A stretch of 64,000 nt of DNA from Macrostomum lignano (GCA_002269645.1 NIVC01002146.1:136668-200667); one strand, 5' to 3'. Numbered from the stretch's first letter, positions 13,191 to 61,269 are shown. Translations and numbers: made by a program. The notes: generated by a model from the letters alone, not told the origin.

Positions 13191-14191
13191 TCCTAAAAAT
13201 GGCTGCTTCCAAATTGCTTAAATCATAGTCCTCCTTAGGCAGAAAGAGCTTACCAAGAAAAGACGCCACACTGCAAAACTGATATGCATGGCAAAGATGG
13301 CAAAGGACATTCCAGCTTGAGATCTAAGCAGGTGTTGACTGGTATTCTAGATGTGACAGTTTAAAAGCCCAACTCATGCAAACTTTAGGATTGCCATTAG
13401 TTTTAGCGCCATCAGTGATGAAATGATCTAAAGGCTTGTGTCAAAAATGCTTTTTTGGATCAGGAAGTCTTTCAACATATTCAATTTCATGCAGCATGGG
13501 TTCAATTGGCCACTTTTTATATGTCTTATGCTGTGCTAAATGATCCCAATAAGTCTAACGATTGATAGTCATCTTCACACTAAAAAAATGATTGCATACT
13601 GTTTGACTCCATCAGAAGTAGCCATTACAATTGTCTTCCAAGATGGATTCTCCTTTTGGTATTTTTATTTTGTTTCATTCCAATCAATGCATGTCTTTTG
13701 ATACAATTTTAAATGTCTTGTCACTTATGAAGAACACTAGTAGGAATTTGCATTGTTCAAATTGAATGAACATCTAAAATAAGAAATAATGCATGAATTA
13801 GACTTTAGACAACATGTTGTTTTTTTGGCTTATAATTTATACGGATATTTGTTTGGCCCTTTTACTCCCTCTTACATAAATCTTTTAATTCCCACTTAAA
13901 AACTTTTCTTTCTCCCATTCATATAGTCTTCTCCCCTTTCTACCACTTCTATAGTTTTATCTTCTATATCTGCATGTCTAATTTATATCTACTATTCTCC
14001 AATACCTGTCTTTCCTTCTGCTAGAATCTTAGCTAAACTGACTACTTAGATGGGCAATCCTTTTAGGTTATAAGTTAATTCTTAATTCAAAGATAAAATC
14101 CACTTGCTAGGCTGTAAATTATTCAGCAACAGCCATTTAGCCTCCTATTTTGCTTTCATGTATTTTTCATAAATTTATTTTGATCTGGCAG

Positions 14192-15215
14192 GCCGCCCCT
14201 AGGCGGACCAGGCGGTTCCTTTGGTCCAGCGCCTCTGCGTCCGCCGCCGATGCAGCAGCAGCAGCAGCAGCAGCAGAGCTTCCGCGGTCCTCCGCCTAGA
14301 GGTCCTCCACCGCGGGGACCGCCGCCTAACAGCGCCGGAATCCGTAGTGGCGGCGGCAGCGGGGGCGGAGGTGGCGGAGGAGGCAGCCTGCCGCCTATGC
14401 TTCGCGGCCAGCCGCCTCCTGGCTGGCGGCCTCCGATAAGTGGCCCGCCGCCATCGCCGCAGCAGCAGCGCGGCGCTCCCCCGCCGCTTGGCGGCCTGAG
14501 CGGATCCCGGCCGATGCCACCGGGCGGGGTTGGGCCTCCGCAGCAGCAGCAGCAGCAGCCTCGCCCTCCAATGCCAGGCCAGGGTGGCTCCGGCCAGCAG
14601 CAGCAGTCGGGGATGCCACCAGCGCCGCCAAACCTTAGCGTGCCGCCGCCCGGCATGCCGACAGACCGGTCCGGGATGCCGCCTCCGCCCGGCTTCATGC
14701 CCTCCGGCCCGCCGCCGCCCACGCCAGTCTCTATGGTTGGCGGCGGCTCCGGGGGGCCGCCCGGCCAGCATGCCATGCAGCAGCCGCCGCCGCACATGGC
14801 CTCGCCTATGGGTCTGCGCGGGGCCCCGCCGCCCGGCATGCCACCGCATCGGCAGCAGGCGCCGCCGCAGCATTTGATGCCGAATCAGAATTCCTCCTCA
14901 TCCGGGATGATGCGGCCGCCTATGCCGCACATGATGGGCGGCCCGATGCAGCAGCAGCAGCAGCCTCATCCGCAGCATCTCGGCCCTCCCGGCTACGGAA
15001 TGCCGCCGCCGTCGTTTGGTGGCCCGCCGCCGCCTCATCTGATGGGCCCGCCGCCCAACTCCATGATGGGCGGCGCCCCGCCGCCGCCGCCTCCGCCGCC
15101 GCCAGAGAATGTGTGGGTTGAGAACTGCACGCCGGAAGGAAAGCCGTACTTTTATCATCTGCGCAGCCGCGAGACTCGCTGGGAACGGCCTGAAGGGGCT
15201 CGGATTATGACTCAG
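14192..15215 (+). CDS. TCERG1: TCERG1 exon (Pro/Gln/Gly-rich region + WW1)
   Basis: Acceptor ctggcag|G, donor CAG|GTAGGC; WW1 '[27 protein letters not shown]'. Confidence 0.9.
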
Positions 15216-16584
15216 GTAGGCATGACTGCTCCGATAGCAACCAGACCATGTAAGCTGGCAGACAGATTTAAATACGAGGGGTGATCAAAAAGTTCTGCAA
15301 CCTCTTGTTATAGCTTTTAATTATAGAATCGGCAAAAGCCAAAAACTTACACATATGCGGCTATATCTGTTTGCTATATTAATATGCATTTTTGGCTTCC
15401 AAATATGCTCCAGTCAAATTTCAAAGCCATATATTTTCCATGTGTTTTCAGTAGCTGATGGAAACATCAAAAGACAGCGTTCGCTTCTATATCTTTATGT
15501 GCATGTAACTTGGTTGCAAAGTGACTGAGATTCACACCGATCTGGTGAATGTTTTAGCTAACTCTGCTCCATCATTTGACACGGTTGCCCGCTGGCTGCG
15601 CCATTTCTTGGAAGGCTGGCACAGCTTCAACGCTGAACCGAGGTCTGGCCGACCCCGCACATCCGTGACCGAAGATGTCGTGGCCCATGCCAATGCAATA
15701 ATTCATGAGTATTGGAGCATTACGCTAAGATTCCTTGCCTATGAGCTTAGTGTCAGCTATGGAAGTGCTCATAACATCATGCATGAGCAACTGGGCCGCA
15801 CAAAGACCTGCGCTCGGTGGGTACCCCATCTTCTCACTCCGGAGCAGCAAGCAGAGAGGGTGCGCATCTGTCGCTTGTGGGTGCAAATGTTTGAGCCCCA
15901 CGGCCCACGACGACTGTCGGATGTCATCACAGGAGAAGAATGTTGGATCTCCTTCTTTTACCATGAAGGATAAGCAGTTTAACATGGTCTGGCTGGCAGA
16001 AGATGAGCCCGAGGCCCAAGGTGCTGAAGACCGGATTCCGCAGTCGGAAGCGGATATTCACCATTTTTTCAACTCTCAGGGTGTTGTATCGGTAAACATC
16101 CTTCCAGCGGGTGCCACAGTGACTGCCAGGTACTACACAGACACTGTTCTGCCAGGCGTGCTGCAGGAGCGGCAGGAACGTGCGCGAACCAGACATAGAC
16201 CTCGACTCCTGCTGCACCATGACAATGCGGATCAAATCCGTCATTTCTGGGAGGCCGTTTTCACACATACAAGACCTTGACCAAGCGGTACATTCAGCTC
16301 TATCGGGTATACCAACTTCGGAGTACCATGACTGCTTTCAGACATGGTGCATACGCATTGCGATGGTGCATAGATAGTGGTGGAAAGTACTTTGAGAGAA
16401 TGTGACACTGATTAGACGCCGTGGTTGCTGTAACACTGAGTTGTGAGGTCACTTGCAGAACTTTTTGATCACCCCTCGTATGCAATAGGAATGTAGGTAA
16501 CCGATTAGTAAGATGATTAGTAAGATGAAAGCGTATAGCCAAATCGTGAGGTGGTCAGACAGATCTGCTGATAATAGTCATGTG

Positions 16585-16650
<66 letters not shown>

Positions 16651-19600
16651 GAGACGCTGCACCATTTTTCAGGCGGAGGTCGACGCTGTAGCCGAAGGCG
16701 CCCCTCCAGGCGCGGCGGCTGGCGGCCCCATGTCTGCCGGAGGGTCGGCCGTCCGATCCGGCATGCCGCCGGCGACTTCGGCTCCGCCTCTGTTCGGCAT
16801 GTCCGGCGGGCTGCTAACCATGAGCCAGCAACAGCAGCAGCAGCCGCCGCCGCCCAACGGTCCCGCCAAGCCGCCAGAAGTGGCCGAATGGGCCGAGTAC
16901 CGGGCGGACGATGGCCGGCCATATTATCACAACCTGCGCACCAGCGAGACCGTCTGGGAGAAGCCGGCCCCGCTGCTAGCCTGGGAGGCCGGCGGCAAGC
17001 CGCCTGCGCCAGCCGCGGCACCGCCGCCTATTATGAAAGAGACTCAGGCGGCGGCTTCCTTGACGGCGGCCAAAGATGGAGCAGTTCCGACCAGCGTTGC
17101 CACGACTGGCGTCAGTCAGCAGGTGGCGGAGGTGGACAAGCGACAAGCGGCTGCTCAGTCTCAGCAGCAGCAGCAGGACAAGTCCCGGCCCGTGAAGAGC
17201 CAGCCGGTGCCCGGCACCCCCTGGTGTGTTGTTTGGACAGGCGACGATCGGGTGTTCTTCTTCAATCCATCCAAGCGGCTGTCGCTGTGGGACCGGCCGG
17301 AGGAGCTGGTTGGCGTCAAGGAGGTCGAAAAAATTCTCGGCAAAGGCGCGGCAGCGGAGAAACGCGCGGCCGGCAAATCGGCCACCGGCGCGTCGGCAGC
17401 TAAAAAAAAGAAAGTCTCTTCTGCTAAGCTTGATACAAAAAAGAAGAAGACCGCCGACGGCCAGAAGAAGAAGAAAAGAAAGCGCAGCGGCTCGGACGAC
17501 GACGATGACGATGAAGAAGACGGCGAATACGACGAGTCCGGCACCGACGAGGACGGCGACGATTCCAATGACGACGACGACGATGACGATGACGAGGATC
17601 GAAGAAAGGCGAAGCGGCGCCGCCGGGCCGCTGCCGAGAAGAAGCGGCAGCAGCTGCAGAAGAAGCGACGCCGAGACAGCGGCAGCAGCGGCTCTAATCA
17701 GGATGACGACGACGAGGACGACGATGAGGACAAAGAAGACAAGGAGGACGAGGAGAACGAGGACCTCGGCGAAGATGACGATGACGACAAGCCGCTGCTG
17801 GAGCGGGACAAGATTGAGCCGGGAAAGGTAAACGCGTTCGAGGCGGAGGTGCAGGCGGCGCGGGAGCGGGCCAGCCTGCCGTTGGACGCCCGGATGCAGC
17901 AGTTCCGGGAGATGCTGGCGGAGAAGCAGGTGTCAGCTTTCAGCACTTGGGACAAAGAGCTGCACAAGATCGTGTTTGACCCGCGCTATCTGCTGCTGCC
18001 CAGCAAGGAGCGCAAGCTGGTGTTCGACCAGTACATGAAGGAGAGGGCCGAGGAGGAGCGGCTGGAGAAGAACAGGAAGCTGAGGGAGAAGAAGGAGGCC
18101 TACAAAGCGCTGCTCGAGGAGGCTAAAGTTAGCGCCAAGTGAGTAGCGGATTAGTTTAGTTTATTAGTGATTTAAGGTAAAGGCCATTGTTCTAACTTTT
18201 TAAAAAGGTATATGGAAAATGCCTTCCGTAAAATGCCTTTGTAAATATCAAAGTCGTTTTCGCACTACCAAAGTTGGCCAATTTATTAGCAGACTCAAAT
18301 CCAGTGTTTCACGCATCCTATCTGTACAGGTGTCGTTTTCAAAACTTATTCTGTTGAACAGAACCTTGCTTACATTGAAAAAACGAAGACACAAACACTG
18401 TTGCGAGAGTGAGAAAGTAGATCACTGTAAGAATATTGGTCGGTGCCAGTCAGACTTTTGACTAAAAATACTTGAATCGATGTACATAAAAACACAAACC
18501 TAGTCTCAGTGGGGGCCCATCACAAGCTCGAAAAATCACATCGTCGAAAAGTTTAGCAACCACCATCACAAGCTCGAAAAGTCACATCGTCGAAAAGTAG
18601 GGTTACGGTTTAGGGTTAGGTTAGGGGTTAGGGTTAGGTTAGGGGTTAGGGTTAGTGTCTTAGGGTTAGGGTTCAGGGTTAGGTTAGGGTTAGAGTTGGT
18701 GCCTTAGGATTAGGGTTAGAGCTAGAGATGGTGGTTGCTAAATCAGTTTTCGACGATGTGACTTTTCGAGCTAGAGATGGTGGTTGCTAAATCAGTTTTC
18801 GACGATGTGACTTTTCGAGCTAGAGATGGTGGTTGCTAAATCAGTTTTCGACGATGTGACTTTTCGAGCTAGAGATGGTGGTTGCTAAATCAGTTTTCGA
18901 CGATGTGACTTTTCGAGCTAGAGATGGTGGTTGCTAAATCAGTTTTCGACGATGTGACTTTTCGAGCTAGAGATGGTGGTTGCTAAATCAGTTTTCGACG
19001 ATGTGACTTTTCGAGCTAGAGATGGTGGTTGCTAAATCAGTTTTCGACGATGTGACTTTTCGAGCTAGAGATGGTGGTTGCTAAATCAGTTTTCGACGAT
19101 GTGACTTTTCGAGCTTGTGACTTTTCAAGCTTGTGATGGTGGTTGCTAAATCAGTTTTCGACGATGTGACTTTTCGAGCTAGAGATGGTGGTTGCTAAAT
19201 CAGTTTTCGACGATGTGACTTTTCGAGCTAGAGATGGTGGTTGCTAAATCAGTTTTCGACGATGTGACTTTTCGAGCTTGTGACTTTTCAAGCTTGTGAT
19301 GGTGGTTGCTAAATCAGTTTTCGACGATGTGACTTTTCGAGCTTGTGATGGAACCCTGTTTACGACGATGTGATTTTTCGAGCTTATGATGGCGACCCGT
19401 CTCAGTGCTCAACTGCAAAATTGCTTTAAACTGTTCTTGCTTGAGTCCAATTTATTTATTAATAGTTTAATCAACAGCCAGTCGCCCTGCAGATGACTAA
19501 CCCGTTGAAAACTTTACCGTGCTTAGGAGAGTCGCAAAAAAGTCGTCCTAAATTCGTGTTAGCGCTTAACTTTCTACCAACTCTAGTAGACTCGATCGAT

Positions 19601-36974: not shown

Positions 36975-37696
36975 TTAGAATCTGTGATTGATACTTTGCT
37001 AGCTATTGGTTTCTTCTGAGCTGAGCTGCTGAGCTGCAGTTTCACACATTTTTATTTTATCATTTTCATTTTTATCAATAATCATTCTATAATTTGTCCT
37101 AACTATTCTTGTGTTACACATTCCGCATGCAGTTTGCTTTTGCAAGCCCGTGCATTATTGGGTGATATTGCGTGCAGGTCTTTTGCCTCTGATCTATTTG
37201 TTGGAAAACTTTTAAATGTTACTTTTTGCACACAGCTTATTGTAGAATGCGTCTGTGCAACCGAACTCTTTGTTTTGTCTTCTATTGTCTAAATCTGTAC
37301 GTTAAGCAGCTGATCGTGGCAATTGGTCTTTTGTCTTTATTTTCCTCTTAGTCTTGCTGCTGGTTCCGGTGCAATCACCTTCTGTTTTATAATTGTCCGA
37401 TATCTTCTGTTCTTATCGCTAAACCAATTTGTGTTCAACATTTCCTAGTGCCTTGCGCAGTTAGGAATAGTCACATTATTGTTAGTCAGTTTTTGGCGAA
37501 AATATATTTGCTTTTTTGTAATTGAATAAAACCTAAACGCTTTTAGAGTTTTTTGAATATCAAATCATGAACTGGAATCTCGACCTCTGTGGTCAAAATG
37601 AAAATTTATTAAATGTTTTCAGATAGGCTCCTTATAAGACTGCTTTTTTTCAGCAACACCATCGAGCACAAGCAACGTGTAGAAAACAAGCTTCTA

Positions 37697-39002
37697 CGAG
37701 GGATACTCCAAAAGTTTTGCAATTCAACCACTTGCGCAAGTCGCACAATCTTCAAAACCAACTCTCTGTACAATAAACATGTACATAGTCCCCACCTCAA
37801 TTTTCAAGTGAATTCATACATATACGCCTGCTCAGCCCCCAGTCAAAGTCAGAGACTCCTTAACTGTACAGCTGCAGCCATGGAATTGAATCGTGAGCAG
37901 AATCGGCTACTAATTTGGTACTGCCACAAGCGAAAGCTCACGGCGCTTGAGACTCATGCCGAGCTACTAGCAACATTGGAGGCTCAAGCGCCGTCATATG
38001 CTACGGTTACACGCTGGTACCGCGAGTTCCAGGCCGGCAGGACCAGCTTTTCTGACGACCCCCGGCCCGGGAGACCTCCGACAGCAGCGACGGAGGAAAA
38101 CATCGCTGCAGTGCAGGAGCCGATTCATCAGGATCCGCGAATCACCACGGACATGCTAGCTATGAATGTCGGCATTGGATCGGCAGCGGTCGATACGATT
38201 CTACACGATCACCTGAGAGTCAGGAAGCTTTGTGCCCGATGGATACCCCACATCCTGACAGATGCTCAGAAACAGGCCCGCAGGGAGTTCTGTCAGTTTC
38301 TCATCGATCGATATGAGCACGGGAGCCATCAGCGCCGCTCTGAGGTCATCACTGGTGATGAGACGTTTCTCTATCATTTTGACGTCGAGACAAAGCGCAG
38401 CAGTGCAGAGTGGGTGCCGAAAGGTGGTCAACGACCCCTGAAAGCAAGGCGGTCCCGGTCCCAGGGCAAGCGGATGTTTGCCATCTTCTTCGACTCACAA
38501 GGCGTGGTGGCGATGGTGAAGCTGGAGGGTCAAGCTACAGTCACTGCTCGATGGTACACTGAAGAGTGCTTGCCAGTCGTGATCGACAGCGTGACCCAGA
38601 GGGCGCCAAGGACGGGAATGCGAGGGCAGAAACTTCACCATGACAACGCCCCCGCCCACACGGCTGCTGCAACTCGAGCGTTCCTGGACCAAGAGGGCAT
38701 TTCAACACTACCACACCCGCCCTACTCACCAGACCTCGCCCCTGCGACTTCTGGCTCTTTCCAGAAATCAAAAAGTCGCTTAGGGGGCACAGGTTTCAGT
38801 CCGACGAGGAGCTGGAGCAGGCGGCGAAGGAGGCGATTGACGGCATCCCAATTGAAGACTTCCAGGGCTTGATGAACAAGTGGCTCGGACGACGCACAAG
38901 TGTTTGCAGTTCCGGGGAGCCTACTTTGAAGGATTGTAATAGAAAAGTTTGGCAAAATTAACTTTAAATAGTTGAATTGCAAAACTTTTAGAGTATCCCT
39001 CG
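37697..39002 (+). mobile_element. Full-length mariner (DD34D) transposon
   Basis: 32-bp TIR CGAGGGATACTC[C/T]AAAAGTTTTGCAATTCAAC (1 mismatch), TA TSDs at 37695-96 and 39003-04, 1306 bp. Confidence 0.95.
37880..38939 (+). pseudogene. Mariner transposase with two apparent 1-nt deletions near the 3' end
   Basis: ATG 37880 'MELNREQNR'; WIPHILT, TGDET, HDNA, YSPDLAP; +1 C at ~38740 restores PCDF with 34-residue D-D spacing; second shift at ~38895 restores 'KCLQFRGAYFEGL*'. Confidence 0.9.
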
Positions 39003-49426: not shown

Positions 49427-49584
49427 TATAGCATTTCCCGGTCAATTTGGTCCTAGAAGCACTCAATTTAATCCGCAATAGAGAATTCCAATTCATTCCA
49501 CCGTCACTAGAGATATGTCTATGGCCAAATATGCTGTTTCGTTCCACTCAATTTAATCCTGGGGGCACTTATTTCGCGTATTTA

Positions 49585-51782
49585 TGATGTAACCACGCTC
49601 TGGTCGCGGGATAGGGCATGGGAACTTTTTTGAAAGTGCCTCCTATCCCGTGCACCCTCTGCACAGAGCTGTCGAGACTCGGCCAGGTCTCCGACCGGGC
49701 CTGGAGACTCCCGCTCTGCTGCACCCCTCCTGCTGCCTTGGTCCCGTCTCTCCTGCCGCCACACCTGCCTTTCCGGAGCCCCTACCCCTTTCTGTACCTC
49801 CCCCTCTACCCTATCTCTTCTGTTCCCGCCCTATTCTTCCTGTACTTTCTCTACCTCCTCCCTTTTTTTGTCTCCCTCTGCACTCTTTTCCTGCGCTGTC
49901 CCCTCTTTCCCTGTGTCTACTTACAGTACTTTGTGTGCTCACCGTCTCCCCATCCCCTCTCAAACTCCCAAACGGTGACGCAAGTCGTGTGACCCCTTCT
50001 CCCCCTCGGTGACTCATCGATGACTCATCCCCCTCTCTTGCGCAACCTTTTCTCACGCTATTGTTCTCCTTCCCAAATTTCTCATGTGACACCCACCCCA
50101 CCTCCGCTTCTATTGTTCTCGTTTTTGCTTCTTTTGTTCTCTCGACCCCACCAATTATCACATTTTCTCCGATTTTCTCTTTCTTTTGTTCTCGTTTTCG
50201 CACCTAATTATCACCTTTTCTCCAATGTTTACTTTTCCATTGTTCTCAGTTTTCCCCAATTATCCCCGATTTCCAATTCCTTTGTTCTCGACCCCAGCCC
50301 TATTGTTCTCAATGTTTGCTTGCGCAACACTTTCGCGACCACCCGCTGCGCCAATTATCCCCCACCCCACCTCCGGATTGCGCAATTTCCCGATTTCTCA
50401 TGTTGCTATGCCGGTCTCATGCTTCTCATCATGACTCATTCTGACGTCATTCTGCCGGCAGCCAATCAGAGAGAGGGAGCCATGGTAACGACCTTGAGGA
50501 GGCGGCTGTGAGGTCTATAAAAGGAAGCGATTTCGGCATGAGAATACTCAACTGAGTTTATCTCTGTTCCTCTCCTCGTCCTTCTTTGGACTTGCTGTCA
50601 GATTGAGTTCTGACCCATTCGTCTATAAGACGAATCCCTGCCGGTCCGCGGTCTGTTACCGCCAAGTTATCCTTAGCTCCCCAAGTGAGCTCGCCTATCG
50701 GCCAGCGGTCTGATACCGCCCAGCATCATCAGCATCGCCTGATCTACATCAGCGCCTCGTCGCTCCAGCGCATCGCCGCTTCACCGTCTGCCTGACTGCA
50801 GCCTACAGCCGCCCTCGGTCACTCCGCCTCTCTCTCTCTCTGTGCAGCTGCCGGTAAGTTCCTACTACTAATTTGGGCTCTAATTGCCTTTGCTTATCCG
50901 GGGTTTGCCTATTTTCCATTGTCTGATTAGAGAGCTGAGCCAATTGTGATACCGTATCTTTTGCTGTATTTTACTCAATAGTGAAGCCGCCTAATTGCCT
51001 GCTTATTTGCCTAAGGGCCTAATTATTAACTATTAACTAACTTCATCATTATTCAATCTTTCACCATCATTTCACTCATGGCTTGCTAAGCCTTTCTCCC
51101 GGGGTGGCAAAGCATAAGGAAGTTTGGGTAAGCTAATGGCCTCTCCCCGTGCAAAGCCCGCCTGTGAGTGCGTGCTGCGGGGCCGCGTGTGCGTGCAGTA
51201 GAGGGATTAGCGAGTCTTGGCACAGAATGGCAGTAGGAAGGTTGCAACCCCATGCTAACGCGTCCCTTCGCCATGTTCGCCATGTTCGCCTCATACTACT
51301 CTTAGTAATCAAAGTCGCAAGTCAGCCTCGCTCACAGCCACAAAGGATCCCCTGCTGAGAAATCCTCCAGGATTGAGCCCAGAGTTCCCGATCATGCCCC
51401 AAGCAGAGTCCCTGTACTCGGCTGCATGCGTCTCCCCTGTTAGCCTAAATCCCCTGGTAACCAATCCAGGCGGGGCTCTAGCCTCGAGAGGTCTGGTAGA
51501 AAGATCCAGGTGCGCCAGGTCACATAGAGTGGTGGCAGCCACTCGGTCATACCATGACCGAGTGACCAACTATTGCACCTTGGCTACAGGTGGGGTCCAT
51601 GTGGGTCCTTGGCCCTCTGGTCACGAAGCGCTACCAAAGCTACTAATCATGTGGGCGGGACAGTCTGGTGCTGGAGGTCCGTCAGGTCATTGCCCGGTCA
51701 TAGGCAGCCTACGGTCATTGCCCCCTCTAGCCATGCGTTCGTCTCTCTACGGAGCGGACAGGCGACGAGGGCGGTTACATCA
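49585..51782 (+). repeat. 5' LTR (2198 bp)
   Basis: Direct repeat of 58661-60874; CCAAT at 50462, TATAAAAG at 50516. Confidence 0.95.
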
Positions 51783-51785
51783 AAA

Positions 51786-51803
51786 TGGTGGCAGCGGTGG
51801 GAT
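51786..51803 (+). promoter_or_regulatory. Primer-binding site complementary to tRNA-Leu 3' end
   Basis: TGGTGGCAGCGGTGGGAT, 3 nt after the LTR; complements the conserved eukaryotic tRNA-Leu end ...AUCCCACCGCUGCCACCA. Confidence 0.85.
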
Positions 51804-54152
51804 CTGGTGCAAACAGCGCTGAGTTTCGGACTGGTGGTTTAGATGTGACAAGCGCACCTGTGGCATCCCTCAGAATGGTGGCCGAAGCGCAAAGAGTGCC
51901 ATGTCTAAATCTACCAATCGTAAAAATCGCCAATCGTCATTCTCTTCTCCCATGGCGTGAGGCAACAAAATCCAAAAATATTAATGTAACTTTTCAAATT
52001 TTTCGGGCTGCGAATTCGTTCAATTCATTCGAAATTTCCAAATTCATTCATTCGCCAAAAGCCCCTGATTCAATTTAAAATTAATTTAGCCGATCAGTTT
52101 CAGCGCTAGAAAGTGTGAAGTGGTAGACGAGCGGATTTGATTACAATCAGAATAGCTACCTGGTAACGGAGTGTGTGAAGAACTGCGAAAGTGAATTTTC
52201 CGGACTCACTTTCTATTTCATGGTAATATGCTTTATTTCCCCTCCCTTTCTTTCTCTCGCCTAGCCTACAGCAGAACTGTGTGAGTGTTGAGGTGGACAG
52301 CCAGCCAGGTACGGAAGCCTCATCACGCAAGCCAGGGAAGCTGGAAGCGAAGCATTTCTTTCCTTTGTCCTACCTCTTTCTTTTACTCGGGGGAGTGTAA
52401 CAGTCGCTCTCCCTGATCGCTCAGTTAATCCTAGAAATGCGTAGAGACCGGAGCGTGTTTTGTTTGTCCATTAGAATGAACAGCTATCAAGGGCTATGGG
52501 GAACTCGCTATATATGCATAGTAAGGGAAGCAGTAGTCATGGCCTTGGAAACATTGGGGGATACCAAAGTCTCGCAGGAATGGGAATAGCGGTGTGATTG
52601 TATCTCTGTAGGGTATCAGTGTGACTCAAAAATCTCGGGCTAAAAAAAGTGTCACCTCCTATGGAATACCTGCGATCAGCCCGGACCTGAATTCTGCGGT
52701 AACCCCTGGTGCCTTCATGGCTGGGATTCGATCCCAACGTGTCTGCTGACTCTCCCCACTGTATTGCAGACCCGGTAGTAACTGCTTTGGTTGCATTTGG
52801 GCTGGTGCAGTGGCTGGAAATAGTAGATCCCATAGTATCCTATTGATAGTGGAGTTCAGTGAGTATTGGAATGGTGTACTGGAAGTCTGGTGGCCCCCAG
52901 TGATCTCGTAATGTTTCCTGCTGCATTCTCCTCCTTTAGTAATTCCTCCCCCCTGCTGTCAGTCTGATAGGGGAGGTGGGTGTGCCAATCAGCCCGACCC
53001 GGTAGAACGGCGCTCCTGCCCGACTTGTCAGCCTGGCCCAGGAAGGCGCTATTGCGCAACTCTTTTCCCCTCTGGCCACTGCAGCCCACTAAGCGCTTAG
53101 ACGCAGGGTTGCATGCAGTCCCCTAATGTAAAGCCCCGGTACATAGAGTGCCACCCCAGTGCCCCGCAAGGTCAATAAGACGGGTTGACGTCTCTGGCAA
53201 CTTGGAATAACCTAGATGGAGGTACCGCTGTCTCCTGGTAGAACCGGGCGTTCAAGTACAGTAAAGTGGAGAGGCTGACAACTGTAGGACTTTCTCCGCC
53301 ATCAGATAAAGGTCCCAAGTATGCTATTTCGAGCTGCAGCAAAGGTGGAGTATCGGAGGGGCAAGCATTTCAGGAAGATACTCACTTAGGTCTGTTTATC
53401 CTAGGAAAGCGGGCGAGAGTTTCAGGCTTGTAATCCGCCTAACCTGAAAACTTCGGGGACAGTTTAGTCTGGACTCCCGCTGCGCGCCTTCGCTCTGAAC
53501 AGAAGGGGAGGTCTTGGTTTTTGTGGATTCTGCTAGACGTAGGGGAGCTGGATTCCCGCCTTTTGTGAAGCTGCGTGTACAAGATTGGTAGTCCTGAGGT
53601 GGAAGCCCCACTGGACTCCGACGGTTTTCCGGCTGTGCAAGGGCAGTAAAGTGGGAGGACCTCCATGGGGATTGCTCCCGCCACTTGGGTTTTTGGGTCC
53701 AGGCGCCAACGCTTCTTCGTAGTGCTTTCTTAAGGAAATGGGGTCCGGCGCGCAACCCTAGGGGAGAATTTGTACAGGTGCCGTAAGTCCGTTTACGGTC
53801 GGCATTTGGGTTCCCTAGCATGGCCGCAAAATGAAGGTCAAGTCTCTCTGAATAGCCAATTTTTCCCTGTCAGGATGTGCCATAGACAACTGGTAGTGGT
53901 AGCCGCAGTTTGAGTCAGTGTGCTTTGCCGAGTGAAGCCGTTAGGACTGCCTAAATGGAATTATGTGGAGCCACCCGTTTTTCAATTTGTTTTCTTCGAC
54001 GCCGCAAGTATGTGGGTTTTGTCTGTGTTTGTGTGTGTGTGAGTGTGTTTGTGTGTTTCGGATCAACTTTTCGGTCTTTACCTGTAGTTGCCCCGGTTTT
54101 CTTTTCTTTTCCTTCCCGGTGGTGGGTACTCCCCCAGCTATCCGGCATTCAC

Positions 54153-55457
54153 ATGTCACGGGCGCGTGGAGATAGGGTCGTAGAAGCTGTGTGCGCAGAC
54201 GCCCCTGGTCAACCACCCTCGGCCGCTGACACCCCAGCAGTTGCCGCCCCCGCAGCCGCAATGGCCGCAGCCGCTGGTAACCAGGTCCCTCAGCCTCCAG
54301 AAGCAGTAGTAGTTGAGGAACCAGATGAAGGAGTAGCAGCTCCCGCTCCCAATCAGGGTGGCGCAGCAGCCGCCGCTGCTCCCCCGGACGCAGCCCAGAA
54401 TCCTCCTCAGGCAGTCCCGCAGCTAGGAGACTTAGTTGCCGCTATAGCCAATGCGTTTAACCAGCTAAACATGGGCCAAGACGCCCAGAGGCCGAAAATC
54501 TACGTAGAAAAGTTCTCTCCCGGCGAACACTGTTTTGTGCAATGGGTAGAGAGAATGATCTACAAGCTGGACGCGGAGAGAACTGTAGGAGATCAGGCTA
54601 GGAAGCAGGTGCTCATCTCGCACCTCCCAGGTGAATTTCAGAACTTAGCCTTAGGATTGGACGGGCAATTGCCCTTTGAGCAGTTCGTATCTAGATTAGG
54701 AGAGCAGTTGGGCGAGGCCAACACTGATCTGGCTAAGAGAAATAAGCTGAAGAATCTGAGCCAGAAACCCGGCCAATCACATAGTGCTTTTGCTGCTATG
54801 ATAAGATCTCAGATAACGGCCATGTTTCCTCAGATTCAGGGTGAGCAGAGAGAACAAGAAATCGTGTACACCTACTTGGAACACGCTAAGCTCCCCCGCC
54901 AGGTCAGACAAGATCTGTTGAGCCGTCGCTGGCAGACAATTGAGCAGGTGTTAGAACAGCAGCAAGCCCTGTTAGAAGCCGCAGACTTAGCCGGGAAATG
55001 GGACAGTAGTGGCCCGCCCAGGTCTGAGTCCCGCACCGAAGTCCGTCTGCAACCTCAGCAGCCACCCAGGCCCCCTCGCAAGTGGGTCAGGATGGTGAAC
55101 CAGGAAGCTGACGAGACGGAGGAGGACGGTGACGGCCTATCAGAGATGCAAGAGAGGTTGGGCGCGCTAGAGCAAACGCAAAAGGATCTGCGCAACCAGC
55201 TGGTGCAGCTCAATGAAACTATGAAGGCGACAGCAGAGTCTGTTGCCCAGCTGCCCCAGCAGATGAGGCCCCCTCGCCCCGCCACTCCCAACAGGAACTG
55301 GAGGCAGGGGCAGGGCGGCTCTAATAGCAGTAGGAACTGGCGCCAACCCCAGCCCCCGCCGCTTGCAATTCAGGAGGCGCCCACGCCGCCGGCGCCGGGT
55401 GTGCAGCAGCAGCAATTGCAGCTTCGTGCGCCACTGATCGCCATAGGCAAGATTTAG
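54153..55457 (+). CDS. Gag (retrotransposon capsid-like); probably extends to ~55593 if two 1-nt deletions are corrected
   Basis: Ala/Pro-rich N-terminus, capsid-like 'KFSPGEHCFVQWVERM...LKNLSQKPGQSHSAFAAMI', then a coiled coil; ATG 54153 follows a strong acceptor. Confidence 0.8.
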   Translation: MSRARGDRVVEAVCADAPGQPPSAADTPAVAAPAAAMAAAAGNQVPQPPEAVVVEEPDEGVAAPAPNQGGAAAAAAPPDAAQNPPQAVPQLGDLVAAIANAFNQLNMGQDAQRPKIYVEKFSPGEHCFVQWVERMIYKLDAERTVGDQARKQVLISHLPGEFQNLALGLDGQLPFEQFVSRLGEQLGEANTDLAKRNKLKNLSQKPGQSHSAFAAMIRSQITAMFPQIQGEQREQEIVYTYLEHAKLPRQVRQDLLSRRWQTIEQVLEQQQALLEAADLAGKWDSSGPPRSESRTEVRLQPQQPPRPPRKWVRMVNQEADETEEDGDGLSEMQERLGALEQTQKDLRNQLVQLNETMKATAESVAQLPQQMRPPRPATPNRNWRQGQGGSNSSRNWRQPQPPPLAIQEAPTPPAPGVQQQQLQLRAPLIAIGKI

Positions 55458-55574
55458 AGGAGTGGGGCAGAGATATGTTAGACGAGGCTACCAGGGAGAG
55501 GCAGGAGAGGCTCGCCCAGCTGCGCGCGCAAGCTCTGATGCCTCCTCCTTCCACGCCTGAAGAGCCCCGGGTTC

Positions 55575-55637
55575 GGGAAACCCGTGGGAGGGCTGAATGG
55601 CCCGGCCCGAACTCAGCCCCGTTCCCTCTCTAGGGCC
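55575..55637 (+). promoter_or_regulatory. Putative -1 programmed ribosomal frameshift signal (GGGAAAC + pseudoknot)
   Basis: Slippery heptamer 55575-81; stem GGGCTGA (55590-96)/TCAGCCC (55613-19); loop GGCCC can pair with GGGCC (55633-37); the -1 frame is the protease frame. Confidence 0.7.
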
Positions 55638-56099
55638 CAGCTTAACCTGCCACGTCCGCCCAGCAAGAAGTTTAGATTTGAGAAGGTACCCGATTTCTAT
55701 CAGCCAAGACCAGCTAGAGGACAACGCGGGAGAGATATTGTTGTAGAGTTGCCAATTGAGAATGTTCCCACCCGCCTCCTGGTAGATGGGGGCAGTGCGC
55801 TGTCTTTGCTAACAGTCAAAGACTTTACTAAAATTACCGGACAGAGTGTGGAGGCCCTGGAGCCCCCATGTGTGAAGGCCGTGTCCTACACGGGCAATGA
55901 ATTAGAGATGCTAGGCCAGGCCACCCTCACAGCAGTTATTGGGCTAGAAGAGGTGAGAATCCTCTTTCTGGTCGTTGGCAATTCAGCAGCAGTTTCCCTC
56001 CTGGGTAGTGCTTTTCTAGCCAGTACGCATGCTATCATAGACTATCGAACAGAAAAGGTTTACTTGCTAGGTGTGAGTCTCCCATTCGACCCCCGCTGA
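55584..56099 (+). CDS. Retropepsin-like aspartic protease domain
   Basis: 'VELPIENVPTRLLVDGGSALSLL' and 'SLLGSAFL...AIIDY'; active site reads DGG rather than D(T/S)G; stop TGA 56097-99. Confidence 0.8.
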   Translation: MGGLNGPARTQPRSLSRAQLNLPRPPSKKFRFEKVPDFYQPRPARGQRGRDIVVELPIENVPTRLLVDGGSALSLLTVKDFTKITGQSVEALEPPCVKAVSYTGNELEMLGQATLTAVIGLEEVRILFLVVGNSAAVSLLGSAFLASTHAIIDYRTEKVYLLGVSLPFDPR

Positions 56100-58643
56100 G
56101 TAACAGATCGGTAGCTAGCCAGTGATTGCTTAATTCCCCCCCCCGATTCGCGTGTCGAAATTTTGCTCGTGTTGCCCCGTTGGAGACCGCTTTTCGCGTA
56201 TTTACGTATGCCCTCTATTACTCGAATTTATGTTGTGACCTCGTGCTCGTTGGTGTTGTTTAAATATCTAAGATTTTAGCTCGAAAATTAGGCCCGTACA
56301 GTATGCGTTAATTCCCTATCAGTAAATATTAACTTGGAAACTAGTAAAATTTCTATGGGTCTGCTCCACAGGAGGTCCTGCCCCGCTGTTTAAGATTTTC
56401 TGGGAACAATGGAAGTCTGGGACCGTAGGAAATTAGCACCTTTAGGTCTGATTTCGTGTGTTTGTTCACACTTTGTGAAAGTCCGATTTTGGGAAACTTT
56501 TAATTGGTTTCGATGAGGCAATAGGGGGGGCATTCAATGTAATTAAGTTTATCAGGCAAATGGGGCAGCAATTAGTTTAGAGTAGGCCAGTGGTTTAGTC
56601 AATGTAAAGTCAGGTAAGTAATTAAAGTCAAGTTATGGGGACAGATAGTTCAGAATTAGTAAGTAAGCATTAAGAACCACCAGCATCAGCAGTTGGGAAG
56701 CCGCAGAAATAGCTCCAAGAGCAGTAGCCAGTGCATTGTGAGACCGGCTATTAGGGCCGTCGACAGCACGACCAAATGCCAGGAGCCGTCGGTCTCCACC
56801 ACAGGGGTTGGCAAGGGCTGTGGAGCGGCAGCCACGGGCGTCACCGCGGCGACCGGCGGCGGAGCGTGCGCTCGGGCTGACAACGGCGGTGGTACCGGAT
56901 GCCAACCGGCCCCGGACGCTGGTTCGCTGGCGGCCCGGCGGTCGCATGGCCCGGGAGCCGCGGCGCCTATGCACCAGATGGCGCAGCCGGCCCAGAATCA
57001 GAGGGGGCGTCCGGCTCTGAATGGCTGTCTTCGGGCGCTTCGTAGTCGGACTCCTCTTCAAGGATGGGCTCGGCTACTAGCGGCCGGAATCCTGAAAATG
57101 AGAATTTAAGGGATGAAATAGAAGTAGGGAACTAGCCGGGTATTAGGATGTAGATAGATGGGGATTTTAACTTTATGGCGTGTGGTAGTGGCCTTCCTGG
57201 GGGTTTCTTCCTTTCTTCATTCCCTCTCCTTCCCTTGAGCTCTAGGTGATCAAGTAGTGGTAGCCTTCTTCCCGCCTTCTTTTAATGATACACCTCTAAG
57301 TGATGGCAGTTTTTCGTCTTCCTCTCCTCTGGTAGAAGGGCAAATGGTGGCAGTTTCCCCGGGCAATCCACTCTAAGTGGTGACGGGTTCCCTCTTTCTC
57401 TTCCCTGTTAATGTACAATTGGTGGCAGTTTTCCCTAGCAACCTCTCTCAAAATGGTGGCTGATCCTCCTTTTCTTTTCTTTGGTAATGCGCCAAGATGG
57501 TGGTAGGTTCCCCTTTCTCTTTTATAATAGTACATCAAACTGGTGGCAGTCAAATTAATGATTAATTCCTCTTTCGAATTCTTTCGGCTGTTAAGTTTAT
57601 GAGGGTCTCGGAGGCATGGATGAGAACTGCGTGCGCGTGGCGTTGAAGGAAGAAATCGAAGGGAGTTGGGCCGCATCATCATTTATCCTCCGGAGTCTAA
57701 TCTCCCAAATCCCTCTTCTATTCATATTATTAAATATTGTTTTCTAATATGCATTTTACTAATAATATACGAGTCTTGTTGTGTCATTATCAAATTCATA
57801 AAAATGTCTGTGTTGGCTCTCACTCTTTACCGTAAGAAAGACATATATTATTACTGCAATTGGCTCAGTTTAAATGAAAGGCATGGCGAGTGGGTAGATT
57901 TCGTTTAACGTATAGGCGAAAGGAAATCAGGTTGGTGATGGGACTTACCGAGTAGTTGTATAGTTTGGAAAATCGCGCTGAGTGCCTTGGTTGGAAACTG
58001 CGACTCCGTGTAGGTTGCAGGCAGCCGGCTCCCGTTATCAGTGGCGCCTTTTATACAGTGGCCAGCGCACGGCGCGGCGCCTCCCAGCCTACAACCGATC
58101 GCCCCGAAGCCCTCTGACTGGCTGAAGCGGGGTCCGAGCCTTCAAGGACGCTAGGCCTCCGTGCGGTTGAACTCCCGGCGAAATTAGCTTATTAATTTAC
58201 TGCGCTGCATTAGTATTTTTCCCCTGTGTAATCGTCATTCTCCCCGAGGCTCTGCCCTTGGCTGTGTGCTAGCAACCCTTCCCCCCTTCTTTTTCCCCAC
58301 TTCCCTCACCCTTCCCCGTTTCCTCTCTTTCCCAGCTGCGCTTCTATCCAATTATGATAATTTATTGTTGACAATTCGCTATTTTTCTCCCTACTATTGC
58401 GCTGTCTGTGTTTCCCCCCTCCCACTTTAGCCACAGCAACAGTTGAAATTTTTGAAATTCTGTATTGCACTCCAACCTATGTATCTCGTGTTGTGAATTT
58501 ATTGCTATCCCCTCTATTTTATCGCCTTTTTCCATTCCCGCTCGCGGTTTGTTAATTCTGTGATTTCACGTTCGGTTGAGATCCCGCTCCCGTCTGTGTG
58601 GTTCCATGTTGGGCAGTGATGATGACGGAACCAGTTCCGTCAC

Positions 58644-58660: not shown

Positions 58661-60874
58661 TGATGTAACCACGCTCTGGTCGCGGGATAGGGCATGGGAA
58701 CTTTTTCGAAAGTGCCTCCTATCCCGTGCACCCTCTGCACAGAGCTGTCGAGACTCGGCCAGGTCTCCGACCGGGCCTGGAGACTCCCGCTCTGCTGCAC
58801 CCCTCCTGCTGCCTTGGTCCCGTCTCTCCTGCCGCCACACCTGCCTTTCCGGAGCCCCTACCCCTTTCTGTACCTCCCCCTCTACCCTATCTCTTCTGTT
58901 CCCGCCCTATTCTTCCTGTACTTTCTCTACCTCCTCCCTTTTTTGTCTCCCTCTGCACTCTTTTCCTGCGCTGTCCCCTCTTTCCCTGTGTCTACTTACA
59001 GTACTTTGTGTGCTCACCGTCTCCCCATCCCCTCTCAAACTCCCAAACGGTGACGCAAGTCGTGTGACCCCTTCTCCCCCTCGGTGACTCATCGATGACT
59101 CATCCCCCTCTCTTGCGCAACCTTTTCTCACGCTATTGTTCTCCTTCCCAAATTTCTCATGTGACACCCACCCCACCTCCGCTTCTATTGTTCTCGTTTT
59201 TGCTTCTTTTGTTCTCTCGACCCCCACCAATTATCACATTTTCTCCGATTTTCTCTTTCTTTTGTTCTCGTTTTCGCACCTAATTATCACCTTTTCTCCA
59301 ATGTTTACTTTTCCATTGTTCTCAGTTTTCCCCAATTATCCCCGATTTCCAATTCCTTTGTTCTCGACCCCAGCCCTATTGTTCTCAATGTTTGCTTGCG
59401 CAACACTTTCGCGACCACCCGCTGCGCCAATTATCCCCCACCCCACCTCCGGATTGCGCAATTTCCCGATTTCTCATGTTGCTATGCCGGTCTCATGCTT
59501 CTCATCATGACTCATTCTGACGTCATTCTGCCGGCAGCCAATCAGAGAGAGGGAGCCATGGTAACGACCTTGAGGAGGCGGCTGTGAGGTCTATAAAAGG
59601 AAGCGATTTCGGCATGAGAATACTCAACTGAGTTTATCTCTGTTCCTCTCCTCGTCCTTCTTTGGACTTGCTGTCAGATTGAGTTCTGACCCATTCGTCT
59701 ATAAGACGAATCCCTGCCGGTCCGCGGTCTGTTACCGCCAAGTTATCCTTAGCTCCCCAAGTGAGCTCGCCTATCGGCCAGCGGTCTGATACCGCCCAGC
59801 ATCATCAGCATCGCCTGATCTACATCAGCGCCTCGTCGCTCCAGCGCATCGCCGCTTCACCGTCTGCCTGACTGCAGCCTACAGCCGCCCTCGGTCACTC
59901 CGCCTCTCTCTCTCTCTGTGCAGCTGCCGGTAAGTTCCTACTACTAATTTGTGCTCTAATTGCCTTTGCTTATCCGGGGTTTGCCTATTTTCCATTGTCT
60001 GATTAGAGAGCTGAGCCAATTGTGATACCGTATCTTTTGCTGTATTTTACTCAATAGTGAAGCCGCCTAATTGCCTGCTTATTTGCCTAAGGGCCTAATT
60101 ATTAACTATTAACTAACTTCATCATTATTCAATCTTTCACCATCATTTCACTCATGGCTTGCTAAGCCTTTCTCCCGGGGTGGCAAAGCATAAGGAAGTT
60201 TGGGTAAGCTAATGGCCTCTCCCGTGCAAAGCCCGCCTGTGAGTGCGTGCTGCGGGCCGCGTGTGCGTGCAGTAGAGGGATTAGCGAGTCTTGGCACAGA
60301 ATGGCAGTAGGAAGGTTGCAACCCCATGCTAACGCGTCCCTTCGCCCTGAGCAATCTAAACTGTAGACAGTACATGTTCGCCTCATACTACTCTTAGTAA
60401 TCAAAGTCGCAAGTCAGCCTCGCTCACAGCCACAAAGGATCCCCTGCTGAGAAATCCTCCAGGATTGAGCCCAGAGTTCCCGATCATGCCCCAAGCAGAG
60501 TCCCTGTACTCGGCTGCATGCGTCTCCCCTGTTAGCCTAAATCCCCTGGTAACCAATCCAGGCGGGGCTCTAGCCTCGAGAGGTCTGGTAGAAAGATCCA
60601 GGTGCGCCAGGTCACATAGAGTGGTGGCAGCCACTCGGTCATACCATGACCGAGTGACCAACTATTGCACCTTGGCTACAGGTGGGGTCCATGTGGGTCC
60701 TTGGCCCTCTGGTCACGAAGCGCTACCAAAGCTACTAATCATGTGGGCGGGACAGTCTGGTGCTGGAGGTCCGTCAGGTCATTGCCCGGTCATAGGCAGC
60801 CTACGGTCATTGCCCCCTCTAGCCATGCGTTCGTCTCTCTACGGAGCGGACAGGCGACGAGGGCGGTTACATCA
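58661..60874 (+). repeat. 3' LTR (2214 bp)
   Basis: Direct repeat of 49585-51782. Confidence 0.95.
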
Positions 60875-61269
60875 TTTATTTTAAAAGCCGTTAATAAGCA
60901 AGAATGAGTGACTCGGAAAGTAGCGCCAGTTTCTGAACAACTTAATGCTTACAAATCAATGCGTCAATCTCTTTTCTTTAAAAGTAATAGCTTTTAAAAT
61001 AAATACGCGAAATAAGTGCCCCCAGGATTAAATTGAGTGGAACGAAACAGCATACTTGGCCATAGACATATCTCTAGTGACGGCGGAATGAATTGGAATT
61101 CTCTATTGCGGATTAAATTGAGTGCTTCTAGGACCAAATTGACCGGGAAAAGCTATAGTAAGCATCCACCAGACAATAAGTAGCTAGTGCAACAATTTCC
61201 TTAGCTCTATAGTGGCTCCTTTAAAATTGGCATGACGCTTACTTTTACGTTTAAAATTGTGTATCTTTT

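Follow-up and report, generated by a model that had tools for sequence, protein, structure and literature searches.

Non-autonomous LTR elements of the TR-GAG type, which occur in plants, have LTRs, a primer-binding site (PBS), a polypurine tract (PPT) and gag, with or without a protease, and have neither reverse transcriptase (RT) nor integrase; to our knowledge, an antisense spliced gene is no part of their definition. Antisense genes of the aORF-3R class are represented in plants by gene23 of Grande and by those of RIRE2 and Retand, with a fungal case in Boty, and the aORF-3R and Boty products studied are nuclear or bear TRP28 (excerpts of PMC7264820 and PMC11963269). The antisense gene of HIV-1 has its start in the 3' LTR, under a promoter without a TATA box, and its product, ASP, is a hydrophobic, membrane-associated protein of about 190 aa that bears proline motifs and is of recent origin (PMC10186651, in the part available). 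The sORF2 proteins have a central helix, an N-terminal ectodomain, usually an MGxxxS/T motif, and a polybasic cytoplasmic tail (PMC11952523, in part). The function of antisense accessory genes of LTR elements is an open question, and a 2020 review recommends looking for antisense and spliced transcripts (PMC7264820, in part).

To date, layouts of this kind are known chiefly from plants, fungi and retroviruses, and the locus reported here likely extends them to an animal, in a spliced and predicted membrane-type form. It lies within the window, by which we mean the whole 64,000-nt stretch analyzed (Macrostomum lignano NIVC01002146.1:136668-200667), in which all coordinates are counted. We give a probability of about 0.5 to the reading that an antisense unit joins an exon starting at 57091 to an ATG exon missing from this copy, and that the predicted product is a tail-anchored accessory adaptor of 215 residues.

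The LTR element

The antisense unit sits within a Ty3/gypsy-type LTR element of 11.3 kb, with the following features.

49581-49584 (left) and 60875-60878 (right), no strand: target-site duplication TTTA
49585-51782, plus strand: 5' LTR, 2,198 nt, ends TGATGTAAC...GTTACATCA
51786-51803, plus strand: PBS, TGGTGGCAGCGGTGGGAT
54156-55457, plus strand: gag, with a PNMA/Retrotrans_gag-type capsid region, by the domains of relatives
55539-56099, plus strand: aspartic-protease-like ORF, motif LVDGGSA, weak match to PF13975
58644-58658, plus strand: PPT
58661-60874, plus strand: 3' LTR, 2,214 nt

The paired LTRs with TG...CA ends, the target-site duplication, the PBS and the PPT are the structural marks of a Ty3/gypsy LTR retrotransposon, and the insertion is young, since the two LTRs differ by just 7 substitutions and 5 gap events. 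We take TGGTGGCAGCGGTGGGAT to match the 3' end of tRNA-Leu; the 64-kb window contains no tRNA genes. Gag is recognized through four relatives (E values 1.5e-7 to 3e-4) that bear PF14893/PF03732, with 26% identity across 181 aa to one of them (P0002); two relatives have a CCHC knuckle, which is absent from the gag frame. A word search with gag gave no match among 8000 candidates, and neither did an exact look-up of six window proteins. The protease ORF matches PF13975 weakly, at an E value of 0.023 that falls under the cut-off, so that of the gypsy-type pair Gag is identified by its relatives' domains and the protease weakly. No RT, RNase H or integrase was found in the six frames of the element. 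The protease frame stops at 56099, contigs from sequencing runs continue unbroken over 55269-57575, and a segment of 1.9 kb missing from the window (see below) is too short to hold RT, RNase H and integrase together. The element is thus a non-autonomous Ty3/gypsy derivative that has gag and protease and is without RT and integrase.

Near 55433 and 55564, the length of the window differs from all four of the runs compared, and the breaks between gag and protease are therefore probably assembly errors. The protease motif at 55778-55795 (plus strand) reads DGG. The usual motif of aspartic proteases is D[ST]G, and the enzyme may be inactive. A long pyrimidine tract lies at 54100-54156 (plus strand), with a CAG ending at 54137, 18 nt 5' of the gag ATG, which makes a spliced gag mRNA without the PBS possible. 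The interval between PBS and gag (51783-54155) is unusually long, at 2.4 kb, and holds no long ORF; on the minus strand, the acceptor TTTTCAG/G at 53450 and two donors, at 53385 and 52209, might serve additional antisense exons. On the sense side, TATAAAAG lies within the LTR at 50516 and is followed by the donor GGTAAGT, at 50853, an arrangement that echoes the antisense layout described below. Unlike the heat-induced M. lignano LTR families, which are RT-based and have heat-shock elements in their LTRs (PMC12801592, in part), this LTR has no three-unit GAA/TTC match to the canonical heat-shock element.

Over 56068-56207 and 56295-56423, both DNA- and RNA-labelled runs contain related families that are 86 to 89% identical to the element and diverge from it beyond these stretches, so that further RT-less relatives and a conserved cis element are possible. 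A 159-nt inverted repeat, 98% complementary, flanks the element (49427-49585 and 60999-61157), and the insertion was therefore into a palindromic or foldback element. The rest of the window contains a host gene and a mariner-like transposase frame (14184-18142 and 37613-38872, plus strand) as well as many long tandem arrays; the host gene, with its WW/FF repeats, is presumably TCERG1-like.

Promoter and splice motifs on the antisense strand

57949-58055, minus strand: candidate antisense promoter TATAAAAG (58055-58048), ATG-free leader and donor CG/GTAAGT (by motif)
57092-57148, minus strand: splice acceptor with branch-like CCTAAT and pyrimidine tract (by motif, a 28-letter loose end and forks in run contigs)

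A preliminary description of this DNA, made from one copy, had placed an antisense gene of two exons here, and each of its motifs is where it was drawn: the TATA box, the leader without ATG, the donor (ACTCG/GTAAGT at 57949/57948) and the acceptor (...CATTTTCAG/G at 57092/57091, after CCTAAT and a pyrimidine tract). The GC-rich block that it placed downstream of the acceptor is likewise present, with 68% GC against 42% on either side. In dinucleotide shuffles of 58660-56100, the TATA box with donor recurred in 11 of 2000 and the acceptor in 22 of 2000, and all three together in none of the 2000, by criteria that were set post hoc, when the motifs had already been seen. Pairs of a TATA box followed by GGTRAGT number three in the whole window, namely those of the two LTRs and the antisense candidate. 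The leader is open, in phase with the acidic frame of the GC-rich block, and level-best as minus-strand coding by the frame score described below. One run contig (X1) departs from the element at 58060, five bases upstream of the antisense TATA box; its loose end has no match in the window at 3 mismatches, and the contig is a variant without the antisense promoter context.

Run contigs at the acceptor and across the missing segment

The stretch is present in 20 of 24 listed runs, which come from 8 studies; run types are guesses, and none is on record as RNA. We compared four runs from four studies as contigs, which are strandless; X1, X12 and X17 are guessed to be RNA and X10 is guessed to be DNA. 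A contig of X17 departs from the window precisely at 57092 with 28 other letters, and X12 and X17 both fork at 57063/57092; X10 is unbroken over 55269-57575, and X1 passes 57092 without a fork. Depth in X17 falls at the acceptor from 48.4 to 25.3, or by about half, a step that we count as consistent only, because depth is unfit for ranking. The 28 letters are not the leader of the preliminary description and have no match in the window at 3 mismatches; in the frame of the acidic peptide they read LTGLAGRSD. The acceptor 57092/57091 is used, by a junction contig in one probable RNA run and a fork in a second, with none in the DNA-labelled run, and as the AG lies on the minus strand, the spliced RNA would be antisense. 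A deletion in DNA as the source of the junction was rejected because of the exact AG/G position and its absence from one DNA-labelled run (n = 1).

The exon upstream of this junction lies in a segment that the window does not have.

57729-57776, no strand: site lacking about 1,880 nt that are present in the runs, within which lie an ATG exon (about 245 nt) and its donor (run contigs)

In X1 a single contig bridges the missing segment, placing 1,956 letters from 57729 to 57842; in X10, X12 and X17 matching loose letters flank it on both sides. The two X17 contigs that enter the segment sum to the X1 length if they fork about 415 nt into it (444+1466-30+76=1956), and in X12 the contig has precisely 28 letters more (1494-1466=28). 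Since the lengths close exactly, the geometry is that of a splice junction with one shared base per side and with the donor in the missing segment; the intron between that donor and 57091 measures about 1,050 nt. The antisense spliced unit that the preliminary description had proposed is thus borne out by the junction contig and the forks, and its passing mention of additional middle exons fits the ATG exon of the missing segment. Its intron 57948-57092 is not confirmed as drawn; the exon joined at 57092 is one that the window does not contain.

Among the listed pieces of the four runs, none has the window's version of 57730-57775. A shorter form without the segment occurs in X1, X10 and X17 (joint 57613 to 57754), and the long and the short form each show 10 to 11 small gaps against the window around 57754-57929, which makes it probable that the assembly is unpolished or chimeric at 57730-57930; a genuine deletion in this copy is possible. 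The runs do not share a frame break of the window near 56971: X1, X10 and X17 differ from it in length there, and the X12 contig has one gap within the stretch. The run rows listed contain one substitution in the last exon. Holes in X1 and X17 over 53900-54540 and differences in depth between gag and the 3' part were excluded from the argument.

Annotated records of the antisense gene

56686-57091, minus strand: last antisense coding exon, about 135 codons, ending with the stop 56688-56686 and interrupted in this copy by a frame break near 56971 (contig, records, frame scores and fold)
56633-56724, minus strand: alternative-frame hydrophobic tail ALGAIS...NYLSP, which ends 3 of 13 records and is not in the main frame

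Searches with the window piece 56970-56689 and an alignment gathered 13 records, all from M. lignano and from several loci; records 100% identical to the antisense peptide came from this species only. In 10 of the 13, an upstream exon ending in GRSD is joined to the exon at 57091, with three residue differences in one of them, and the residues before the junction are the LTGLAGRSD of X17. The break near 56971 is read across in 10 of the 13. The stop at 56686 ends seven records and the ALGAIS...NYL frame three, and some records break frame or terminate elsewhere. The preliminary description had read its acidic, Pro/Ala-rich and hydrophobic peptides in shifting frames; they do lie in three frames of the window, but the first two share one frame in 10 of 13 records and the third is separate, and a single protein running through all three was for this reason rejected. 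The unit lies between the position of pol and the 3' LTR, as aORF-3R genes do, and the 13 records from several loci and the continuous contigs in four runs would suit its presence in many copies.

Residues 1 to 80 of the records have no match in the window. A comparison by eye of records that read the start of this exon in other frames (P0005, P0011 and P0013 against P0012) points to a pyrimidine tract ending in CAG, four bases 5' of the ATG, and the junction residues of P0016 (PAA45901.1, BOX15_Mlig001352g23), DGK, would fit an intron starting with GTAA. Taken together, the tract and the donor indicate an ATG exon of about 245 nt with its own acceptor, which could receive the donor at 57949 or a spliced leader. 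Trans-splicing accounts for 38.8% of M. lignano genes (PMC5730564, in part); here a spliced leader would presumably leave only a short tip, which assemblers would remove.

The contigs of X12 and X17 are unbroken across 57949 and across the putative acceptor before the ATG, so the first intron was not seen, and none of the joints and loose ends listed for the four runs falls at 57949. This bears on the direct 57949 to 57091 join of the preliminary description, which could be the original or an alternative form carried by short copies, with a non-ATG start in the leader, the long form having arisen when a segment of sense ORF entered the intron. The short form in X1, X10 and X17 (joint 57613 to 57754) would suit such a history, as would a leader that is open, in phase with the acidic frame and level-best in its minus-strand coding score. 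The join itself occurs in one record of 13, P0009, a chimeric model of 1204 aa; there is no ATG, the rows listed show neither a fork nor a loose end at 57949, and we consider this history highly improbable.

P0009 and two further records, P0006 and P0008, which among them bear ephrin-like, myotubularin and RRM names, contain spliced-in exons of the LTR element and are obvious annotation chimeras with host genes; some M. lignano "host" gene models are, in other words, exons of an LTR element. The UniRef names US8A, GPS, BON, LigA, ORF3 and Senescence were discarded as automatic labels without Pfam support.

Such chimeras speak for the view that nothing here is functional: cryptic splicing of read-through or convergent transcripts would tie an exon that is decayed or captured to the back of a sense ORF, and annotation pipelines would have made gene models of the result. 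The junction is direct in only one of three probable RNA runs, indirect in one and absent from one, and purine-rich sense codons would yield antisense pyrimidine tracts by chance. Against it stand the depth step of about one half in X17, a promoter, a donor and an acceptor, all near consensus, that none of 2000 shuffles brought together, and the retention of the block in a young multi-copy family despite loss of RT and integrase. The annotation behind P0016 drew on stranded RNA-seq and transcript mapping and dropped antisense models five-fold weaker than the opposite strand (PMC5730564, in part), a filter that this transcript-based model survived. An absence of function is in our judgment improbable.

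The predicted antisense protein

The predicted product is about 215 residues long and starts with MSTL; an Arg-rich start is followed by a Ser/Ala-rich stretch, an acidic EEESDYE patch, a Pro/Ala linker and a hydrophobic end. In a single-sequence AlphaFold2 model of P0012 (mean pLDDT 56, pTM 0.25), the chain is disordered save for a helix at 184-214, with pLDDT of 88 to 98. The best 19-residue window has a Kyte-Doolittle (KD) value of 2.02 and a summed Hessa-scale value of 0.03; since the alternative frame is about equally hydrophobic (KD 1.98 over 19 residues), hydrophobicity alone is weak evidence. A single helix at the extreme C terminus and no signal peptide are, as predicted, the layout of a tail-anchored protein. 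P0010, P0012 and P0016 gave no Pfam match at E values up to 1, TRP28 (PF04195) and related DNA-binding domains included, and none was found for the antisense pieces of the window. No relatives were found outside M. lignano, the Atlas gave no usable match, and scans of metagenome and viral contigs gave no match to the antisense protein. For the membrane-anchored accessory protein of the preliminary description, the single C-terminal hydrophobic helix is retained as a prediction, a profile search adds no Pfam family, and manufacture and function we infer.

Conservation is patchy. Between the diverged record P0010 and P0012, 13 of 35 linker residues differ, compared with 2 of 37 at the C terminus, both conservative (Fisher p 0.001 against the linker), and 0 of 10 in the acidic core. 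P0010 is a mosaic, with 1 of 80 residues different in the ATG exon, and is locally out of frame; counted up to the last difference, the C-terminal figure is 2 of 17, for which P is 0.25 at 11% and 0.04 at 18% DNA divergence. This one mosaic record suggests selection on the antisense protein.

Membership in two known groups was rejected. The antisense orientation, the hydrophilic N terminus and the disordered model rule out env, which is a sense gene with a signal peptide and a folded ectodomain. The start MSTL, the placement of the helix at 184-214 of 215, and the lack of a polybasic tail and a myristoylation motif rule out sORF2/FAST.

A probable sense-strand ORF behind the ATG exon

The 80 residues of the ATG exon include no Tyr, His or Gln, so the plus-strand frame that shares its third codon positions cannot hold a stop there, and the loose letters of X17 are open in that frame. 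With a frame score trained on eight coding stretches of the window and calibrated by leaving one out, the joint score of the ATG exon on two frames (from P0012 and P0011) is +33.8 bits in favor of plus-strand coding; margins of at least 20 bits occurred in 55 of 100 shadows but in just 4 of 100 windows of true coding sequence. The last exon scores in the opposite sense, with plus-strand alternatives at -3.8 to -20.8 bits and one tie at +0.5, and for each of its two window pieces the claimed frame, read as minus-strand coding, has the best score or ties for it. Since the composition of the ATG exon is shadow-like, a sense ORF is likely present in the missing segment, where a third gene usually lies, and by these scores the antisense ATG exon probably overlies it. 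The preliminary description had held that the gene was apparently not the usual sense-strand env. This is true of the antisense gene itself; the statement is weakened by the probable sense ORF, though nothing marks that ORF as env-like.

The shadow-like ATG exon also favors a reading in which the spliced antisense transcript acts as RNA, pairing or interfering with the sense genomic and third-ORF RNA and feeding small-RNA silencing, while the 215-codon frame is a by-product of the GC-rich block and of the wobble-sharing frame behind the sense ORF. An unseen first intron would leave a long leader with upstream ATGs, and the antisense protein is without homologues. There are precedents in the non-coding antisense RNAs of Drosophila micropia (PMC7264820, in part) and in the non-coding roles of retroviral antisense RNAs (PMC10186651, in part). 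A by-product would leave unexplained that, across the junction, the frame stays open all the way from an ATG after an acceptor-like tract to a single C-terminal helix, and the minus-strand coding score of the last exon and the patchy conservation of P0010 also count against it. We regard an RNA role in place of a protein as possible, though somewhat unlikely; roles at the RNA and protein levels are compatible and can coexist.

A model for the antisense unit

The reading that we prefer, an antisense gene with its ATG exon in the missing segment, would work as follows. Transcription would begin antisense at the internal TATA box (58055), and the 5' part would be lost, through cis-splicing that uses the donor at 57949 or through trans-splicing of a spliced leader to an acceptor four bases 5' of the ATG, after which the intron of about 1,050 nt would be spliced out into 57091. 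A candidate poly(A) signal, ATTAAA, lies at 56504. The product would be a disordered cytosolic body tethered to the membrane by one C-terminal helix. It might work through short motifs, as retroviral accessory proteins do, and would most plausibly tether or route Gag particles or host trafficking factors; this role as an adaptor is proposed by analogy only. It is likely that the ATG exon was gained through overprinting behind the sense-strand ORF.

A bolder version, which we hold doubtful, is that of an RT-less element with a module coded in both directions, in which a sense third ORF and an overprinted antisense tail-anchored protein would anchor or route Gag without Env. If true, a gene birth like that of HIV ASP would be visible in progress, in a multi-copy family that is young and belongs to a tractable stem-cell model animal. 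That the antisense gene has been kept though RT and integrase were lost suggests a role for it, in cis or for the host. Transgenesis exists in M. lignano (PMC5730564, in part), which makes localization and knock-down practical.

Comparison with known systems

In the open-licence literature, we found neither a protein-coding, spliced, membrane-type antisense gene in an animal Ty3/gypsy element nor any mention of Mlig001352. The published survey of M. lignano LTR elements starts from the RT domain (PMC12801592, in part) and would therefore miss an RT-less family; the words "antisense" and "non-autonomous" do not occur in its available text, and the Mlig001352 gene id and the LTR end motif are absent from five of its supplements as available.

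In its LTRs, PBS, PPT, gag and protease, and in having no RT or integrase, the M. lignano element is like the TR-GAG type. Its antisense unit resembles the plant aORF-3R genes in orientation, in position between that of pol and the PPT, in an internal promoter of its own (here a candidate), in a probable occurrence in many copies and in having no database homologue. Unlike these, it has an animal host, lacks RT and integrase, is spliced, is predicted to be membrane-anchored rather than nuclear and has no TRP28 or other Pfam domain. The brtn gene of fungal Boty-like Ty3/gypsy elements (Boty in PMC7264820, in part) is also an antisense extra gene at an equal position; the M. lignano gene encodes a hydrophobic tail and no Cys cluster, and it differs in belonging to an animal, non-autonomous element.

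Among animal elements, Drosophila micropia (PMC7264820, in part) is likewise of the Ty3/gypsy type and has an antisense promoter, as M. lignano may have; its antisense RNAs are non-coding, whereas an annotated, spliced frame of 215 codons is present here. The sORF2/FAST-like proteins of the Drosophila MDG1 group are, as this one is predicted to be, small membrane accessory proteins of an env-less Ty3/gypsy element (PMC11952523, in part), but the helix in M. lignano is terminal, there is no MGxxxS/T motif or polybasic tail, and the gene is antisense and spliced.

HIV-1 ASP and HTLV HBZ/APH are antisense accessory genes that overlap a sense gene, as the M. lignano unit would if its probable sense ORF is real. 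The candidate promoter differs from that of HIV-1 in being internal and having a TATA box, there is one predicted C-terminal helix and not two, and no sequence similarity is claimed. With these differences, HIV-1 ASP is the closest working analogy for what this antisense gene may be.
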